Virus record (IMG/VR): IMGVR_UViG_2671180275_000009
Coordinates: 1 to 40,622 of that record
Origin: a virus
Lineage: Duplodnaviria > Heunggongvirae > Uroviricota > Caudoviricetes
Length of the DNA: 40,622 nt
Direction: 5' to 3' (one strand)
Part shown: piece by piece, positions 1-40,622 of the stretch
How positions within the stretch are numbered: position 1 is the first letter of the stretch
How the letters are laid out: the number at the start of each line of letters is the position of its first letter
Notes under the pieces: model-generated
Database searches by the model: none
What the model was told of the DNA's origin: nothing
What the model saw: the letters and a program-made list of their open reading frames with translations, nothing else
Position numbers and translations under genes: made by a program

Positions 1-1589
1 ATGATGTTAAATGCATGGCACCTGCCGGTGCCCCCATTTGTTAAACAAAGCAAAGATCAACTGCTCATTACACTGTGGCTGACGGGCGAAGACCCACCGC
101 AGCGCATTATGCTGCGTACAGAACACGATAACGAAGAAATGTCAGTATCGATGCATAAGCAGCGCAGTCAGCAGCAGCCTGGCGTCACCGCATGGCGTGC
201 GGCGATTGATCTCTCCAGCGGACAACCCCGGCGGCGTTACAGTTTCAAACTGCTGTGGCACGATCGCCAGCGTTGGTTTACACCGCAGGGCTTCAGCCGA
301 ATGCCGCCGGCACGACTGGAGCAGTTTGCCGTCGATGTACCGGATATCGGCCCACAATGGGCTGCGGATCAGATTTTTTATCAGATCTTCCCTGATCGTT
401 TTGCGCGTAGTCTTCCTCGTGAAGCTGAACAGGATCATGTCTATTACCATCATGCAGCCGGACAAGAGATCATCTTGCGTGACTGGGATGAACCGGTCAC
501 GGCGCAGGCGGGCGGATCAACGTTCTATGGCGGCGATCTGGACGGGATAAGCGAAAAACTGCCGTATCTGAAAAAGCTTGGCGTGACGGCGCTGTATCTC
601 AATCCGGTGTTTAAAGCTCCCAGCGTACATAAATACGATACCGAGGATTATCGCCATGTCGATCCGCAGTTTGGCGGTGATGGGGCGTTGCTGCGCTTAC
701 GCCACAATACGCAGCAGCTGGGAATGCGGCTGGTGCTGGATGGCGTGTTTAACCACAGTGGCGATTCCCATGCCTGGTTTGACAGGCACAATCGTGGCAC
801 GGGGGGAGCTTGTCACAACCCTGAATCGCCCTGGCGCGACTGGTACTCGTTTAGTGATGATGGCACGGCGCTCGACTGGCTTGGCTATGCCAGCTTGCCG
901 AAGCTGGATTATCAGTCGGAAAGTCTGGTGAATGAAATTTATCGCGGGGAAGACAGTATTGTCCGCCATTGGCTGAAAGCGCCGTGGAGTATGGACGGCT
1001 GGCGGCTGGATGTGGTGCATATGCTGGGGGAGGCGGGTGGGGCGCGCAATAATATGCAGCACGTTGCTGGGATCACCGAAGCGGCGAAAGAAACCCAGCC
1101 GGAAGCGTATATTGTCGGCGAACATTTTGGCGATGCACGGCAATGGTTACAGGCCGATGTGGAAGATGCCGCCATGAACTATCGTGGCTTCACATTCCCG
1201 TTGTGGGGATTTCTTGCCAATACCGATATCTCTTACGATCCGCAGCAAATTGATGCCCAAACCTGTATGGCCTGGATGGATAATTACCGCGCAGGGCTTT
1301 CTCATCAACAACAATTACGTATGTTTAATCAGCTCGACAGCCACGATACTGCGCGATTTAAAACGCTGCTCGGTCGGGATATTGCGCGCCTGCCGCTGGC
1401 GGTGGTCTGGCTGTTCACCTGGCCTGGTGTACCGTGCATTTATTACGGTGATGAAGTAGGACTGGATGGCAAAAACGATCCGTTTTGCCGTAAACCGTTC
1501 CCCTGGCAGGTGGAAAAGCAGGATACGGCGTTATTCGCGCTGTACCAGCGAATGATTGCGCTGCGTAAGAAAAGTCAGGCGCTGCGTCG
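1..1589 (+). pseudogene. malZ: Maltodextrin glucosidase MalZ, N-terminal ~529 codons; the frame runs into prophage sequence and stops at 1602
   Basis: Translation matches my recollection of E. coli MalZ N-terminus ([32 protein letters not shown]...); native MalZ is ~604 aa, here the C-terminus is replaced by ...ALRRVTR* from the element end. Confidence 0.85.
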
Positions 1590-1780
1590 TGTAACCAGGT
1601 AAATCATTTGATACCGACAAGGGTTTTAGTGAAAGGAGGTGAAATCACCTGTAAGATACTGAAATAAAACAGGTGATCGATGATTCTGGAGGTTACTTAG
1701 TTTTGATACTGATTAAATAAAATCCGGTATAAAATTAAGGCATCGGCAACAAATTTGATACTGCACATACTGCTTATAGA
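1590..1780 (+). repeat. Prophage left end (attL-like) with three TTTGATAC-containing putative transposase-binding repeats and an 8-bp inverted repeat
   Basis: TTTGATAC at 1607-1614, 1702-1709 and 1754-1761 (spacing 95 and 52 bp, similar to Mu L1/L2/L3 layout); TCACCTGT 1643-1650 and ACAGGTGA 1669-1676. Confidence 0.5.
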
Positions 1781-11525: not shown

Positions 11526-11951
11526 ATGGCAGAAACTCAGATGAGCATGTTTGGTGGTGACAGTGAGCAACTGCACGCCCTTATCGACCGCCTTGATGAC
11601 ATCCCTGATGATGTTCTCAAAAAGAACTGGCCGCGGACCCTGTCAGAACTGGTTGAAGTCACCGGCGCAGAACTTCAGCGTCAGGGGATTGAGCCGGTAC
11701 TGGCCGGCAAACTGGCACGCAAGGTGGCTGCGGCTCAGGCAGCCTATATGGGCGGACGGGGTTATTACCTGCCGGTCGGGGAATCTCTCTTTGCCGAGCT
11801 GCGAAACAATGAGATATTTTCGCGCTGGGACCGGGGCGAGAAAATTGAATCCCTTCGCCGCCATTACCGGATGTCAGAAACCCAGATTTATACCGTCATA
11901 CGCGAACAGCGCCGTCTGCATCTGGCAAGAACGCAACCGCCACTTTTCTGA
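11526..11951 (+). CDS. Mor/C-family transcription activator
   Basis: 141-aa ORF between gemA and lys with C-terminal HTH-like segment (RRHYRMSETQIYTVIREQRR); cannot assign Mor versus C. Confidence 0.6.
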   Translation: MAETQMSMFGGDSEQLHALIDRLDDIPDDVLKKNWPRTLSELVEVTGAELQRQGIEPVLAGKLARKVAAAQAAYMGGRGYYLPVGESLFAELRNNEIFSRWDRGEKIESLRRHYRMSETQIYTVIREQRRLHLARTQPPLF

Positions 11952-19147: not shown

Positions 19148-19231
19148 GTCGGTGGCGGGGGTCGAACCCGCATAAACATCCCTCAGGAAAAAACCATCAG
19201 GCGCCGCTTTACCAGTTAAGAGTACACCGAC
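19148..19231 (-). ncRNA. tRNA-like structure (acceptor stem plus T-arm) between the F-like and G-like genes
   Basis: On the minus strand: GTCGGTG ... GCGGG TTCGACC CCCGC CACCGAC, i.e. a perfect 7-bp acceptor stem and 5-bp T-stem with a TTCGA-type loop; D and anticodon arms are not canonical. Confidence 0.25.
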
Positions 19232-19269
19232 CTGCTTTTATTTTAACCAGGTAGTTTCACGGAGGCAAT

Positions 19270-19743
19270 ATGTCATCCATTGATGCCGCTGTCGTTGTTG
19301 ACGTTACGCGTCTCCAGCGGGTGTTTGCCCGGCTTCAGTTTGTGGGGGGCGGAAAAGACCTGGCCCGCAGTGTGGCGTCCAGCCTTCTGTCATCCTCAGA
19401 AATGGCGTTTGAACAGGAAAAAGAGCCGGACGGCGAACGCTGGCATGACTGGTCAGATCCTTACCGCAAGTGGCGTACCCGTAAGGGATACACGCCCGGC
19501 AAAATCCTGACGCTGAACGGCGATCTGGCCCGCCGCCTGACCACGGATTATGGCGATACCTGGGCGCTGATTGGATCAAATGAACCTTATGCAGCCATTC
19601 ATCAGTGGGGTGGCCTGCCTGGTATGCCACCGGGACTGGCAGCCATTGGCGCACGTCCGTATATGGGCTTTGATGAGGTGGCTGAACAGGAGATCATGGA
19701 CGAAATCAGAAAACGCTTTAAAAAGGCCACAGAAACGCCTTAA
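19270..19743 (+). CDS. Mu G (gp31)-like virion protein
   Basis: 157-aa ORF in the Mu G position. Confidence 0.5.
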   Translation: MSSIDAAVVVDVTRLQRVFARLQFVGGGKDLARSVASSLLSSSEMAFEQEKEPDGERWHDWSDPYRKWRTRKGYTPGKILTLNGDLARRLTTDYGDTWALIGSNEPYAAIHQWGGLPGMPPGLAAIGARPYMGFDEVAEQEIMDEIRKRFKKATETP

Positions 19744-35484: not shown

Positions 35485-36045
35485 ATGCTGATTGGCTATA
35501 TACGCGTATCAACAAATGACCAGAACACAGGTTTACAAAGAAATGCGCTGGAATGTGCAGGATGTGAGCAGATTTTTGAAGACAAAATGAGTGGTAAAAC
35601 GACGCAGCGGCCGGGACTGAAGCGGGCACTGAAGAAACTAAAACCCGGCGACACACTGATGGTCTGGAAACTGGACAGGCTGGGGCGCAGTATGCGCCAC
35701 CTTGTTGCGCTGACAGATGAATTACAGCAACAGGGGATAAATTTTCGTAGTCTTACTGACAACATTGATACGTCAACCCCCATGGGGCGCTTCTTTTTTC
35801 ACATAATGGGTGCGCTGGCAGAAATGGAGCGTGAATTGATTGTCGAACGGACACGGGCTGGTCTTGCTGCTGCCCGTGAAAGGGGACGAACCGGCGGCAG
35901 ACCCCGTCGTCTCACGCAGGAACAATACGAGCAGGTCGGGCGTTTACTGGCCGGGGGTGTCAGCCGAAGACAGGTGGCACTTATTTTTGATATCGGCCTT
36001 TCAACCCTTTATCGTTATTATCCTGCGAGCGTTTCGGAAAAATAA
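35485..36045 (+). CDS. gin: Gin/Hin/Cin-family serine DNA invertase
   Basis: 186-aa ORF starting MLIGYIRVSTNDQNTGLQRNAL (catalytic Ser motif) with C-terminal HTH; adjacent to invertible segment. Confidence 0.85.
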   Translation: MLIGYIRVSTNDQNTGLQRNALECAGCEQIFEDKMSGKTTQRPGLKRALKKLKPGDTLMVWKLDRLGRSMRHLVALTDELQQQGINFRSLTDNIDTSTPMGRFFFHIMGALAEMERELIVERTRAGLAAARERGRTGGRPRRLTQEQYEQVGRLLAGGVSRRQVALIFDIGLSTLYRYYPASVSEK

Positions 36046-36144: not shown

Positions 36145-38184
36145 ATGACGTCCAAATGGGTTCAACTATCATCAATGCCCGGAAACTTTACTGTTAAAGT
36201 TTCCGGTGGTACAGCGGCATTTCTTGAGGCTCCCTTTCCTCCGGCCGAAACAAAAGGAGGAATGACATTTGCTGACTGTCTCATCAGTTTTAATACACGG
36301 GATTGCCTGTGGGTAAGGCCAGTATCCGGTGATCCGAGCGTGGAAATTACCGGTGCGGGTATTGGTGCTGTCATTCCGTTAAGTGCTGATGTTGCCGGTA
36401 CTGCTGAACCGTCAGACTGGGATAATGCTGAAACACATACCCGTCCGTCAGGAAATGAAACTGCTTCCAGCTCCCCTTCCTGGTATTACGTGGTGGTTCT
36501 TGCTGGTCAGTCAAACGGGATGGCCTACGGTGAAGGTCTGCCGCTGCCGGAGACATATGACCGCCCCGAACCGCGTATTATGCAGTTAGCCCGTCGCAGT
36601 ACAGTCACGCCGGGAGGTAAAGCCTGTCAGTATAACGACATCATTCTGGCCGACCACTGTCTGCATGATGTGCAGGATATGAGTGGAAAAAATCACCCGA
36701 AAGCGGATGTGGCTAAAGGGCAATATGGCACCGTGGGTCAGGGGCTTCACATTGCCAAAAAACTGCTGCCGTTTATTCCGGCAGATGCGGGGATTCTGCT
36801 GGTTCCCTGCTGCCGTGGTGGTTCTGCATTCACGGCGGGTGCTGACGGCACGTACAGTGACAGCACGGGTGCTTCAGAGGACTCAGCCCGCTGGGGTGTG
36901 GATAAGCCGCTGTATAAGGACTTAATCAGCCGGACAAAAGCGGCACTGGCGAAGAACCCGAAAAACCGCCTGCTTGCTGTGGTGTGGATGCAGGGCGAGT
37001 TTGATATTGATGCGAAGCCGACGGAGCATTCCGCGCTGTTTCTGGCGATGGTGGAAAAATTCCGCGCAGACCTGGCTGAACAGGCGGAACAGTGTACCGG
37101 TGGCAGTGCTGCTGGCGTTCCGTGGATTTGTGGCGATACCACGTATTTCTGGAAACAGAAAAACGAACAGGCATACCAGGCAATCTATGACGGCTACAAA
37201 AATAAAACAGATAAAAACATTCATTTCGTCCCATTAATGACAGATGAAAATGGCGCGAATGTACCCACCAACAATCCGACAGAAGACCCGGATATTGAAT
37301 CCATTGGTTATTACGGCTCAACGTGGCGTAACAGTGCCGCCACCTGGACATCTGCGGGCCGGGCCAGCCATTTCAGTTCATGGGCACGTCGTGGGATTAT
37401 TTCCGACCGTCTGGCCACGGCTGTTCTGACTCATGCAGGGCGAACCACAGTAAAAGCCGATGTTCCATCTTCTGAAACTGAAGCACCAGTGCCGTCACCT
37501 TCAGAAACTGAAGCAGTAACCACAACACTGCTGTCTTACCGTGTCAGTGAGTCAGAAGGAAATCTGAAAGCCCAGGGCTGGGAGCCGGCTGGCGGTAAAG
37601 CTGAAATTATCAGTGATGCAGGAGGCACAGGTGGTAAGGCAATGAAACTGACCAAGGAAACAGGTAAATCATCCTGGTATCTGGATCATGATGCCGGTAC
37701 TGGTGCTGAACTGCTGAAAAATGGTGGTTTAATCAGTTGTCGTTTTAAAGTACCTGGCGACCTGGTGGCAAACCAGTATGTCATGGCGCTTTACTGGCCG
37801 GTTTCCTCTCTGCCGCAGGGTGTCACCCTGACAGGGGATGCAGGGAATAATCTGCTGGCATCGTTCTACATCCAGACAGACGCAAAAGACCTGAATGTGA
37901 TGCACCACAATGCAAAAGTGGCAACAAATAACCAGAAACTGGGAACCTTTGGTGTATTTGATAATGAATGGCATACGCTGGCCTTCCGTTTTGCAGGAAA
38001 TAACAGCCTTCAGGTTATTCCGGTTATTGATGGTCAGGATGGTGCCGCGTTTACCCTGACGCAGTCACCAGTAGGAACTTTCCCGGTGGACAAACTCCGC
38101 GTAACGGATATCACCAAAAATGCAACTTACCCGGTGCTGATTGACAGCATTGTGGTGGAAGTGAAAAAAGCGGTAACAGAATAA
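36145..38184 (+). CDS. Putative carbohydrate O-acetylesterase (SGNH/SASA family, NanS-like) with additional N- and C-terminal domains
   Basis: 679-aa ORF with YYVVVLAGQSNGMAYGEG (GQSN active-site motif of sialate O-acetylesterase-type hydrolases); GATAAT -10-like element upstream. Confidence 0.55.
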   Translation: MTSKWVQLSSMPGNFTVKVSGGTAAFLEAPFPPAETKGGMTFADCLISFNTRDCLWVRPVSGDPSVEITGAGIGAVIPLSADVAGTAEPSDWDNAETHTRPSGNETASSSPSWYYVVVLAGQSNGMAYGEGLPLPETYDRPEPRIMQLARRSTVTPGGKACQYNDIILADHCLHDVQDMSGKNHPKADVAKGQYGTVGQGLHIAKKLLPFIPADAGILLVPCCRGGSAFTAGADGTYSDSTGASEDSARWGVDKPLYKDLISRTKAALAKNPKNRLLAVVWMQGEFDIDAKPTEHSALFLAMVEKFRADLAEQAEQCTGGSAAGVPWICGDTTYFWKQKNEQAYQAIYDGYKNKTDKNIHFVPLMTDENGANVPTNNPTEDPDIESIGYYGSTWRNSAATWTSAGRASHFSSWARRGIISDRLATAVLTHAGRTTVKADVPSSETEAPVPSPSETEAVTTTLLSYRVSESEGNLKAQGWEPAGGKAEIISDAGGTGGKAMKLTKETGKSSWYLDHDAGTGAELLKNGGLISCRFKVPGDLVANQYVMALYWPVSSLPQGVTLTGDAGNNLLASFYIQTDAKDLNVMHHNAKVATNNQKLGTFGVFDNEWHTLAFRFAGNNSLQVIPVIDGQDGAAFTLTQSPVGTFPVDKLRVTDITKNATYPVLIDSIVVEVKKAVTE

Positions 38185-38333
38185 AAAAAATCCCGCCGGT
38201 CATGATATGGCTGGCGGGAGCTACCTAACCCATAAAGGAAAATAAAAATACTCCCGAAGGAGTAGTTACCAGTCACTTCGTCATGTTTTTACCCGATAAC
38301 GAATTATGTAGTCAATATCAAAGGTAAGGTTAT

Positions 38334-38516
38334 ATGACATTCGTTCATACAATGCTGCTTTATTTCTGCGCTGTGGTCAGTGCGTTATATCTGGTGAGCG
38401 GCGGTTATAAGGTCATCAGAAATTATATTCGCCGCAAAATTGATGACGCAGCAGCCGAAAAGCTCAGTAAAACAGCACAGGCACCATCATCCCCAAACGA
38501 CCCGACCCCGCTCTGA
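38334..38516 (+). CDS. Small membrane protein (60 aa)
   Basis: Hydrophobic N-terminus (MLLYFCAVVSALYLVSGG); AAGGTAAGG RBS. Confidence 0.4.
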   Translation: MTFVHTMLLYFCAVVSALYLVSGGYKVIRNYIRRKIDDAAAEKLSKTAQAPSSPNDPTPL

Positions 38517-38551
38517 TAACGGGGCAATATACCTGCAAAAGGAGAATATTC

Positions 38552-38797
38552 ATGCCAGAGATTAAAGGCACGGTTACTGAAGAGCTTGTCAAACAGGCAC
38601 TTTATTCTGAAGAAGTGAACCGCGTGCTGAAGGCGCAGGTTCGCAAGGATTTTGAGGCACAAATCGACGCATATGTTGATGAAGTGCTGGCCCGAATGGT
38701 TGGCCGTTCTCCGGCTGAAAACAGCACGGAAAATGCTCCTCAACCCGTAGAGCAACCAGAGCCGGTTCAGCCCGGAACTGACGGTACTATGATGTAA
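38552..38797 (+). CDS. Hypothetical protein (81 aa)
   Basis: AAGGAG RBS 8 nt upstream of ATG. Confidence 0.45.
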   Translation: MPEIKGTVTEELVKQALYSEEVNRVLKAQVRKDFEAQIDAYVDEVLARMVGRSPAENSTENAPQPVEQPEPVQPGTDGTMM

Positions 38798-39229
38798 CAA
38801 TACCGACCTGCAGGTTTCCCTGCCGGGTGAATTTGTTAATGCACGTTTTGTGTATTTTCCCTCTGGGGAGAACAGGCAGGGCATATCAGCATCCTGAAAC
38901 AGGAAGCATTTTTTGGTTTGTATGTCTTGCCATTTTGAGATCGAGAACGGCGATAGATGAGCTGTAAGGGAGTCTTACAGGCAGGGTAAACAGGCTCTTT
39001 ATCCATGATAAAGATCTCCTTTTTATGCATCTCTGCTTTACAGGAGACCGGGGAATATCATAGGATACGCCACGAGCTCGAAGTAAAGCATTGATGCAAA
39101 ATTGTCTAAATCGGCCCAGAATAGTTCGCGCTATCTGGGTCGCCCTTTATGTATGTAGTATCCCATTGATTTGAAACATACTACATATACGCACAATCCT
39201 ACCTTCACTGTATAAAAAGTCAATAAAAT

Positions 39230-39368
39230 GATCATTTTATGATCGTTTTCACCACCTAACTCTTCGTTTTCTTTAAGTAAGTAATCACCGCCCTGAATCA
39301 TTGTTGATGACTTTTCAATCTATTTGTTGTATCAATTAAACAAACCGAATCGATCGTTTTTGTCGATC
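39230..39368. promoter_or_regulatory. GATC-rich region upstream of com (candidate Dam-methylation-sensitive regulatory region, by analogy with Mu mom)
   Basis: GATC at 39230, 39241, 39352 and 39365 within 140 bp of AT-rich intergenic DNA. Confidence 0.4.
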
Positions 39369-39415
39369 GATTGCATGAGAAAGGCATCAACAACAAAGCA
39401 GGAGGTTATGCGGCC

Positions 39416-39601
39416 ATGTATCGAAACATACGGTGCCGACACTGCAATAAGCTACTGGCACGGGCCAGTTTCAGTTATCTGGAAGTAAAATGTCCGCGCT
39501 GCAAAACCCTCAATCAAATCACATCTCAGAGCGCCACAGAGCACCCCACATACACAAGGAAATCCTGCCGTGGGGAACAAGAAACATTACTTTCAGTCTG
39601 A
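39416..39601 (+). CDS. com: Com-like zinc-finger translational activator
   Basis: MYRNIRCRHCNKLLARASFSYLEVKCPRCK closely resembles my recollection of Mu Com (IRCKNCNKLL...IEIRCPRCK); GGAGG RBS; 3' end overlaps the next gene. Confidence 0.8.
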   Translation: MYRNIRCRHCNKLLARASFSYLEVKCPRCKTLNQITSQSATEHPTYTRKSCRGEQETLLSV

Positions 39602-40622
39602 TAAGTCACTAACCTATGGTTCAGTATGCAGTGGTATTGAAGCTGCGACAGTAGCCTGGAGCAATCTTGGCTGGAAAGCCAGATGGTTCAGTGAAATAGA
39701 GGACTTCCCGTCAACACTTCTTTCATATCGCTGGCCCCATATACCAAATCTTGGTGATATGGCTTTGCTTGCGCCTCGTATCAGGGATGGGCTTATTGAA
39801 GCACCAGATATTCTTGTAGGTGGAACTCCGTGTCAGGCATTCAGTATGTCAGGCAAACGAAAAGGCCTTTCAGATCCACGGGGGCAGTTAACACTGTCTT
39901 TTGTTGAACTGGCGAATCAGATAGATACCGTTCGGGCATCGCTCAATAAATCCCCCTCAATAATCGTATGGGAAAACGTCACAGGAGTTTTAAGTAGCCA
40001 TGACAATGCATTCGGTCATTTTCTTGGTGCGCTGGCCGGAGCAGGTTGCGCATTACAGCCAGCAAGGAAAAGATGGGCAAACGCTGGTGTTGTGTCTGGA
40101 CCATCGCGTATCGTCGCCTGGCGAGTACTTGATGCCCAATATTTCGGAGTCGCCCAGGCTCGCAGAAGAGTGTTTGTTGTGGCAAGTGCTGGAAAAAGGC
40201 TCGATCCCGGAAAGGTATTATTTGAGTTCCCGCCTGTGTCGCAGGGCGATAAAAACTATTACGGAAAGAAGAAAAAATCCGAATCCCTTCTTGATCAAGG
40301 CATTGAAGGAAAATTGCACCGATATTGCCTTGAAGCATTGCCAAAACGAACAGGCACAGTAATAGCTGGCTATAACGGAACAACTAACCAGGACATGACT
40401 ATGTCTGGTGGGCTCATAGTTGAAAGAGCGCCATATTCAAGGGTTCGTAGGTTGACGCCAACCGAATGCGAGAGGCTACAAGGTTTTCCCGATGGATATA
40501 CAGATATTCCATGGAAAAATTCATCTCCAGCTCATCGTTATAAGGCCATTGGAAATTCAATGCCTGTACCGGTCATGAAATGGATTGGTCGAAGAATACA
40601 GGAAGCGTTAAACGAAGTTTAA
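39570..40622 (+). CDS. C5-cytosine DNA methyltransferase (GTG start overlapping com)
   Basis: Motifs GGTPCQAFS (catalytic PCQ), IVWENV, QARRRVF and IGNSMPVPV in canonical order; stop codon is the last triplet of the window. Confidence 0.85.
   Translation: MGNKKHYFQSDKSLTYGSVCSGIEAATVAWSNLGWKARWFSEIEDFPSTLLSYRWPHIPNLGDMALLAPRIRDGLIEAPDILVGGTPCQAFSMSGKRKGLSDPRGQLTLSFVELANQIDTVRASLNKSPSIIVWENVTGVLSSHDNAFGHFLGALAGAGCALQPARKRWANAGVVSGPSRIVAWRVLDAQYFGVAQARRRVFVVASAGKRLDPGKVLFEFPPVSQGDKNYYGKKKKSESLLDQGIEGKLHRYCLEALPKRTGTVIAGYNGTTNQDMTMSGGLIVERAPYSRVRRLTPTECERLQGFPDGYTDIPWKNSSPAHRYKAIGNSMPVPVMKWIGRRIQEALNEV

Follow-up and report, generated by a model that had tools for sequence, protein, structure and literature searches.

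A putative Com-controlled cytosine methyltransferase at the mom position of a Mu-like Escherichia coli prophage

Whether the Com translational switch of phage Mu is tied to the Mom enzyme, or can equally stand before an enzyme of a different chemistry, is the question raised by the last operon of the prophage sequence studied here (IMG/VR virus record IMGVR_UViG_2671180275_000009, positions 1 to 40,622; this whole stretch of 40,622 nucleotides is referred to as the window). In this operon a com gene overlaps the start of a gene for a C5-cytosine methyltransferase, and three features define the pair:

39416 to 39601, plus strand: com, encoding a 61-amino-acid CCCC zinc-ribbon protein of the Com family (an RNA-binding translational activator in Mu).
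39401 to 39406, plus strand: Shine-Dalgarno sequence of com, AGGAGG, read from the sequence, 9 nt 5′ of the ATG at 39416.
39570 to 40622, plus strand: orphan C5-cytosine DNA methyltransferase of 350 amino acids with a GTG start, PF00145 with the full motif set.

We consider it probable (roughly 0.8) that this is the mom-position operon of an SP18/Mu-like prophage in which Mom has been replaced by an orphan phage C5 methyltransferase while a complete Mu-type control cassette has been kept. The reading of the locus as a Com-controlled cytosine-methylation module is supported in that it agrees with every sequence-level test applied, and it is homology that suggests Com dependence, late expression and an anti-restriction role.

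The small open reading frame (ORF) had been described in an initial annotation of this DNA as a clear Com homologue, and this is borne out by matches to the Pfam family Zn_ribbon_Com (PF10122; E value of 5.8e-13, 48.5 bits against a cut-off of 22.9) and to PHROG 13819, "gpCom control of modification" (E value of 1.5e-13), and by the zinc cysteines C7, C10, C26 and C29 (CxxC ... CxxC), which are invariant in an alignment of eight Com proteins including those of Mu, B3, Salmonella and Yersinia. The identity to Mu Com is 52% across residues 3 to 45. The protein length of 61 residues also stood, but not the left coordinate of 39371, which is the first TTG of a mechanical 76-amino-acid ORF; the gene starts at ATG 39416, the start that RefSeq also uses for identical loci, and its stop codon ends at 39601. 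The overlap with the methyltransferase start, previously put at about 32 nt, is exactly 39570 to 39601, 32 nt. The label given to Com by the RefSeq annotation pipeline PGAP in the copies of this locus, "Com family DNA-binding transcriptional regulator," is misleading, since the characterised member of the family, Mu Com, is an RNA-binding translational activator.

The same annotation called the downstream gene a classical C5-cytosine methyltransferase rather than a Mom-type enzyme, which is likewise correct. The sole Pfam match is to PF00145 (E value of 1.6e-42, 146.6 bits, profile positions 5 to 323 of 324), the TIGR00675 dcm profile is matched with an E value of 1e-39 (137 bits, cut-off of 100.65), and motifs I, IV, VI, VIII, IX and X can all be placed:

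39615 to 39647, plus strand: motif I, YGSVCSGIEAA, a subfamily variant.
39819 to 39845, plus strand: motif IV, GGTPCQAFS, residues 84 to 92, with the catalytic Pro-Cys (PCQ).
39966 to 39980, plus strand: motif VI, VWENV, residues 133 to 137 (ENV).
40155 to 40175, plus strand: motif VIII, QARRRVF, residues 196 to 202 (QxRxR).
40446 to 40490, plus strand: motif IX, RRLTPTECERLQGFP, residues 293 to 307.
40545 to 40574, plus strand: motif X, AIGNSMPVPV, residues 326 to 335.

Motif I reads CSGIEAA instead of the textbook FxGxG, but this is not a defect, as ZF40 gp27 and the N-terminal C5 domain of P7/P1 Dmt, the closest homologues among phage proteins, have the same SGIEAA form. The ratio of nonsynonymous to synonymous substitution rates (dN/dS) is 0.18 to 0.19 for the window enzyme compared with its collinear Salmonella and Citrobacter orthologues (69% identical), and the methyltransferase is therefore under purifying selection. 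The nearest solved structures, M.HhaI and M.HaeIII, were matched in a PDB sequence search in the core motifs only, and no target site can therefore be assigned to the enzyme; NCBIfam gave just the generic dcm superfamily.

The window as a whole is a Mu-like transposable prophage (SP18/Mu-like) of Escherichia coli, with a gene order from the left of a Mu-type repressor-like gene, transposase, MuB-like ATPase, Mor/C-family activator (11526 to 11951), lysis, head and tail genes, an invertase gene and the com operon. The last base of the window is the end of the methyltransferase stop codon, and the right end of the phage lies outside it. With a 1,323-bp com-methyltransferase query, copies 99.1 to 100% identical were found in 10 of 5,426 complete E. 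coli genomes, and two further copies (99.8% identical) lie inside Shiga toxin (Stx)-converting phages; the depositors' annotation there is "inserted Bacteriophage Mu-like phage." The insertion sites vary among the copies and include lambdoid tail genes, Stx phages and, for the window, a truncated alpha-amylase-family gene, as expected of a transposable phage. In copies 99.8 to 100% identical the element ends 164 bp 3′ of the methyltransferase stop. Its final ~95 bp carry repeated GGTATCAAA motifs that are kept in E. coli com-dcm (that is, com-methyltransferase), E. coli com-mom and Salmonella com-dcm prophages, and the four aligned right ends all diverge directly after ...CGCCGCGCT(A/T)TA. Since the element ends 164 bp past the stop codon, with the shared end repeats, the operon falls inside the prophage and is the terminal one at the right end, which is the Mu mom position originally given for it; the possibility then raised, that the locus lies outside the prophage, was checked by this mapping of the right end and can be set aside.

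The motifs and the right end also bear on the idea that the enzyme supplies the modification activity of a restriction-modification system, or is a remnant without activity, which we judge to be highly improbable. Many PF00145 enzymes do belong to type II systems and motif I does depart from the textbook form, but SGIEAA is common to the whole phage subfamily and the other motifs are intact. A pseudogene was rejected on the presence of all motifs together with the dN/dS of 0.18, and a type II system was rejected because the gene is followed by 164 non-coding bp of end repeats and then by copy-specific host DNA, with no endonuclease gene, and is preceded by com.

How a cytosine methyltransferase came to stand behind com is best seen by comparison with the much more numerous relatives that carry another gene there. 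About 225 further E. coli genomes match only bases 1 to 285 of the query (39300 to 39584) by megablast, at ~98% identity, and the annotated gene after com in those genomes is Mom in many and a "hypothetical protein" in most others. The window and a com-mom sibling align near-perfectly from at least 39100 to ~39582 and are unrelated beyond that point, until homology returns ~70 bp 3′ of the methyltransferase stop, within the end repeats. In strain JNEC-KY203 the annotated mom start aligns with the methyltransferase GUG, and the segment shared at the junction is the following:

39570 to 39582, plus strand: shared start codon and leader, GUGGGGAACA, from the alignment with the com-mom sibling; exchange junction at ~39582/39583.

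These alignments indicate that only the enzyme-coding segment is exchanged between the com-mom and com-methyltransferase siblings. The swapped segment (39583 to 40622) has a G+C content of 46.5% compared to 52.7% in the rest of the prophage, which is consistent with a foreign origin. GUG 39570 is the only in-frame start codon 5′ of motif I, and the enzyme must therefore use the initiation region that is common to the sibling mom gene. Homologues of the methyltransferase that are found without Com, ZF40 gp27 and P7 Dmt, align from residue 12 to 14 only, which makes the first 13 residues a leader belonging to the cassette. The boundary sequence GUGGGGAAC is also present in Salmonella and Citrobacter com-C5 loci, in Salmonella and Yersinia com-N6/N4 loci and in phage Chuche. 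In one Salmonella com-N6/N4 locus (L009) the called methylase start, at 1938, follows the conserved GUGGGG (1896) by 42 nt and shares its frame; the methylase probably starts at GUG 1896, and its start was likely miscalled in the assembly annotation.

The region kept across this exchange contains the RNA elements expected of a Com-controlled gene. RNAs that bind the Com protein of Haemophilus sputorum were selected in vitro (SELEX) and carry CC(N)2-3GAG in a six-base loop closed by C-G, with a bipartite form of the motif, NGAGNNCC(N)2-3GAGNNCCNN, and in the model for Mu, Com binds a short hairpin beside a translation-inhibition structure whose stem holds the mom GUG (PMC6483171). The corresponding features of the window are as follows:

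39529 to 39545, plus strand: predicted Com-binding site, GAGCGCCACAGAGCACC (GAG-CG-CC-ACA-GAG-CA-CC), a perfect match to the bipartite motif.
39544 to 39575, plus strand: predicted translation-inhibition hairpin, with arms CCCCAC (39544 to 39549) and GUGGGG (39570 to 39575) and a 20-nt loop.
39556 to 39560, plus strand: methyltransferase Shine-Dalgarno sequence AAGGA, within the inhibitory hairpin's loop.

The match to the bipartite motif is the single one on both strands of the window, where 0.04 would be expected. The predicted hairpin of the Com site has its stem at 39531 to 39534 and 39541 to 39544 with the loop CACAGA, and across nine enterobacterial loci double changes are seen in three of the four stem pairs. 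Among 54 diverse junctions between com and its partner, CC(N)2-3GAG lies within 60 nt 5′ of the partner start in 41, compared to 11% of random windows and 3 of 54 control segments farther upstream. RNA folding had been proposed as a check for a stem-loop that sequesters the methyltransferase start, and the predicted CCCCAC/GUGGGG hairpin indeed holds the GUG in its stem. This hairpin is present in the minimum-free-energy folds of the window, the E. coli com-mom sibling, Salmonella com-dcm and Mu, and its 5-bp core, CCCAC/GUGGG, is the same in all nine of the enterobacterial junctions aligned, behind which stand four types of enzyme (Mom, C5 and two N6/N4 methylase types). The inhibitory hairpin is homologous to the translation-inhibition structure of Mu.

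The arrangement of the hairpin also invites the explanation of plain translational coupling, in which ribosomes reading com unwind the hairpin and re-initiate so that binding by Com is unneeded. The 32-nt overlap puts the whole hairpin in the translated com frame, and overlaps of 11 to 95 nt are common among Com-partner pairs. What speaks against coupling is, firstly, that Com supplied in trans activates mom translation in Mu. Moreover, the Com recognition motif, unique in the window, is kept exactly beside the hairpin, and in the accepted model for Mu, to which the window cassette is homologous, Com binds the hairpin beside the inhibitory structure (PMC6483171). We therefore find coupling without Com quite unlikely, and prefer a switch that is operated by Com.

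A further layer of the Mu system can be recognised 5′ of com:

39349 to 39371, no strand assigned: double-GATC palindrome, ATCGATCG-N8-GATCGAT, likely counterpart of the Dam-methylation/OxyR control region of the Mu mom promoter, with a function presumed from Mu.

In Mu, GATC sites upstream of com mediate Dam-dependent relief of OxyR repression of the mom promoter. The GATCG-N8-GATCGAT layout is the same as that upstream of Mu com, and no such element is expected in a shuffled window. In all enterobacterial com loci fetched it stands 64 to 68 nt 5′ of the com ATG, irrespective of the partner, and in Mu it stands 91 nt 5′ of that codon. A second GATC pair is found at 39230 and 39241, ~110 bp 5′ of the palindrome, giving four GATC sites in the 140 bp before com.

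Several results weigh against a complete and functional Mu-type cassette before the methyltransferase. The third pair of the Com hairpin is a non-canonical C.A mismatch in the window lineage. The hairpin energies are ordinary for their composition (z of -1.6 for a 55-nt segment and +0.2 for 121 nt), the inhibitory stem never varies, so that covariation speaks neither for nor against it, and pairing at partner starts was not above that at com starts in the 54 diverse junctions (0.51 compared to 0.57). Because the fold z-scores are weak, the case for the hairpin is made by its homology to Mu and its retention across enzyme swaps, not by thermodynamics. The com frame runs through both RNA elements, which code there for a conserved EHPT peptide, and protein constraint could therefore explain part of their conservation. 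With regard to transcription, the late promoter of the Mu operon depends on the C activator, and the window has the Mor/C-family gene at 11526 to 11951. However, the distance from the GATC element to com is 27 nt shorter than in Mu, a sigma-70 consensus scan of 38900 to 40622 gave fewer matches than shuffled sequences and none between the GATC element and com, and no convincing late-activator site was found among the 16-mers (up to 3 mismatches) shared by 39230 to 39415 and the rest of the prophage. With no promoter or activator site from these searches, late timing is something that we infer. Finally, 5-methylcytosine (m5C) would not only protect the phage but also expose it to type IV restriction (McrBC, McrA and Mrr), leaving the net benefit in question.

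To see how general the arrangement is, com loci were collected by a scan with a Com alignment, one genome per species, which gave 228 confirmed loci, of which 80 were kept, with 64 distinct downstream proteins. By Pfam, 55 of the 64 partners match one of four DNA-modification families: 22 are D12 (Dam-like) N6-adenine methylases, 20 are N6_N4 methylases, 8 are C5 methylases and 5 are Mom. BLASTP with the window enzyme found seven of the C5 partners, from Citrobacter, three Pseudomonas, Neisseria and two uncultured Proteobacteria. They share only 28 to 69% identity with that enzyme, so Com was joined to C5 enzymes on more than one occasion. In Salmonella, a Com cluster 73% identical to the window Com is followed by a 350-amino-acid PF00145 protein with a 35-nt overlap; 25 contigs encoding that Com were read, and the chromosomal neighbours differ in the three places shown.

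Some of the collected loci are of interest in their own right. In phage Chuche (L004) and in Yersinia enterocolitica (L011 to L013) the GATC-com-hairpin cassette is found before an N6/N4-type methylase outside the transposable phages; the Chuche cassette adjoins an integrase gene, and Hok/Gef-type toxin genes precede the cassette in both. Methylophaga thiooxydans DMS010 has an identical com and methylase locus on at least 11 contigs of one draft genome (L080 to L090), often at contig ends, which might reflect a Mu-like phage that was multi-copy or was actively transposing when the DNA was prepared, or else an artefact of assembly. In a Proteobacteria metagenome-assembled genome (L044, 521 to 1471) the Com zinc ribbon and an N6/N4-type methylase domain share one frame in a single 316-amino-acid ORF, either a natural Com-methylase fusion or a sequencing frameshift.

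Taken as a mechanism, the Com-controlled module would work as follows. Transcription would start in a mom-type promoter region with the double-GATC (Dam/OxyR-type) element, and com would be translated from its own strong ribosome-binding site. Translation of the methyltransferase would be blocked, with its Shine-Dalgarno sequence in the hairpin loop and its only usable start, GUG 39570, in the stem. Com would then bind the adjacent GAGNNCC-N3-GAGNNCC hairpin at 39529 to 39545, of which the extended stem (G39531-C39544 and G39529-C39546) would compete for C39544 to C39546 of the inhibitory 5′ arm, so that the inhibitory hairpin opens and the ribosome can load. The methyltransferase would be made late in lytic growth and be silent in the lysogen, placing m5C on replicated phage DNA before packaging and protecting that DNA in the next host from restriction enzymes with the target cytosine in their site. 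The module itself probably arose when a com-mom phage recombined, within the conserved start-codon region, with a phage that already had com fused to this methyltransferase.

By analogy with Mom and the Hia5-type enzymes, m5C as a late anti-restriction modification that is silent in the lysogen is the most economical reading, and tight control would be plausible since, for hosts with McrBC, McrA or Mrr, foreign m5C on the chromosome is toxic. The same control cassette could instead serve an enzyme with another role, such as epigenetic reprogramming of the host or lysogen, marking of DNA for packaging or replication, or blocking of another defence system. This we regard as unlikely, although pure protection is made less obvious by the McrBC/McrA attack that m5C invites in many E. 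coli strains, and the P7 protein, which joins the homologous C5 domain to a Dam domain, is annotated only as a "hypothetical bifunctional DNA methyltransferase." Against such a role, the enzyme fills the slot of Mom and of the FluMu, Pnm1 and Hia5 methylases, whose methylated DNA resisted enzymes sensitive to N6-methyladenine (m6A) (PMC3299994), a multi-layer off-switch argues against a function in the lysogen, and the enzyme classes behind Com are interchangeable, fitting a generic DNA-modifying role. A wider proposal that builds on the anti-restriction reading could go either way: the ~230-bp unit from 39349 to 39578 (double-GATC element, com, Com site and hairpin, up to GUGGGGAAC) may be a portable, multi-layer safety switch that can be placed before any toxic DNA-modifying enzyme. 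Crossover at the start codon would then let related phages, both Mu-like and integrase-carrying ones such as Chuche, exchange Mom, Dam-like, N6/N4 and C5 enzymes among themselves, which would widen the range of their anti-restriction chemistry. The C5 version would then be the first case of cytosine modification gated by Com, with a McrBC-type trade-off.

The operon shares with Mu com-mom its position as the last operon before the right end, the overlap of com with the downstream gene, the downstream GUG in the CCCAC/GUGGG stem of a hairpin whose loop has the Shine-Dalgarno sequence, and the Com-binding hairpin directly 5′ of that stem. In contrast to Mu, the partner is a C5-cytosine methyltransferase (PF00145) and not Mom (PF25680), with cytosine instead of adenine as the predicted modified base, and the hairpin loop is 20 nt compared to 11 in Mu; as the downstream gene is not Mom, the operon is not com-mom in the strict sense. 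The SP18-type Mu-like prophages of E. coli O157 and other Shiga toxin-producing E. coli (STEC), which carry com-mom, are of the same lineage, with the same cargo genes, GUG start and right-end repeats and with com and upstream DNA 98% identical to the window. They differ in having Mom (245 amino acids) in the place of the methyltransferase (350 amino acids) and in the disordered C-terminal tail of Com, which is 61 amino acids long in the window and 66 in these prophages. For the enzyme itself the closest relatives are Pectobacterium phage ZF40 gp27 (64% identity) and the N-terminal domain of P1/P7 Dmt (46 to 47%), both aligning from residue 12 to 14 to the end with the same motif set, but without the MGNKKHYFQSDKS leader that travels with the Com cassette and, for ZF40 gp27 and P7 Dmt, without com upstream.

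Com in front of enzymes other than Mom is not new. Phage B3 has Com and Dam as ORF47 and ORF48 (B3 record), and FluMu HI1522.1/Hin1523, Pnm1 Nma1821 and Hia5 (from an H. influenzae biogroup aegyptius island) pair Com with non-specific m6A methylases (PMC3299994). In that work, Com-binding elements were noted at the 5′ end of hin1523, Com-type control was proposed for the non-Mom methylases of FluMu and B3, and DNA methylated by the FluMu, Pnm1 and Hia5 enzymes resisted the m6A-sensitive restriction enzymes tested (PMC3299994). Like the window, these systems have a Com homologue upstream of and overlapping a DNA methyltransferase in the place of mom, but their partners are N6-adenine methyltransferases and not C5-cytosine enzymes. 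In full-text literature searches we found no paper on Com with a C5 methyltransferase, and the published partners found all modify adenine; nothing relevant was seen in PMC6602927, PMC3091744 or PMC4378225. The initial annotation, which knew of no characterisation of the C5 pairing, overstated its novelty, given the Com and non-Mom methylase pairs published for B3, FluMu, Pnm1 and Hia5. The pairing of Com and C5 is also a routine annotation in RefSeq, and further cases occur in Salmonella, Citrobacter, Pseudomonas, Neisseria and others. On this comparison the operon is an unsurprising addition to a known family of phage anti-restriction modules; it would work like com-mom, with which it shares the regulatory cassette by descent.

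Our results indicate that the translational switch of Com is bound neither to Mom nor to adenine modification but precedes at least four enzyme families, and they place a cytosine methylase behind Com in prophages of clinically relevant E. coli (STEC) and Salmonella. Induced Mu-like phages of such strains may carry m5C, which would affect restriction barriers, phage host range and the reading of methylomes. PacBio sequencing usually misses m5C. Most interesting is the modularity of the system, where a ~230-bp switch (GATC element, com, Com site, hairpin and GUG) remains intact while the enzyme is exchanged at the start codon, and this sharp junction offers a natural experiment in the retention of regulatory RNA elements during cargo exchange. 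Com with its RNA hairpin is already a tool in synthetic biology, and a natural panel of divergent Com/hairpin pairs would be useful.

Elsewhere in the prophage a few minor features were observed. RefSeq annotates a "tRNA-OTHER" in a sibling copy (L008, 22653 to 22737, approximately 19150 to 19270 of the window), between head morphogenesis and virion morphogenesis genes, and ARAGORN found no tRNA anywhere in the window, including at this site. Between the invertase gene (35485 to 36045) and com there is ~3.3 kb of cargo (36145 to 39030), where Mu has none, encoding a 679-amino-acid DUF6645 protein, DUF1378, DUF826 and a frameshifted minus-strand ORF (38423 to 39030), and the same set is found in the com-mom sibling prophage. 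The first ORF of the window (1 to 1602) encodes a 533-amino-acid alpha-amylase-family protein with an N-terminal Ig-like and a catalytic domain and has its stop codon at the left end of the prophage; it has the appearance of a host gene that the Mu-like insertion cut short. Just inside this left end (~1607 to 1765, in the region 1603 to 1800), TTTGATAC(C/T)G repeats mirror the GGTATCAAA repeats of the right end, and both sets of repeats are probably transposase-binding sites.

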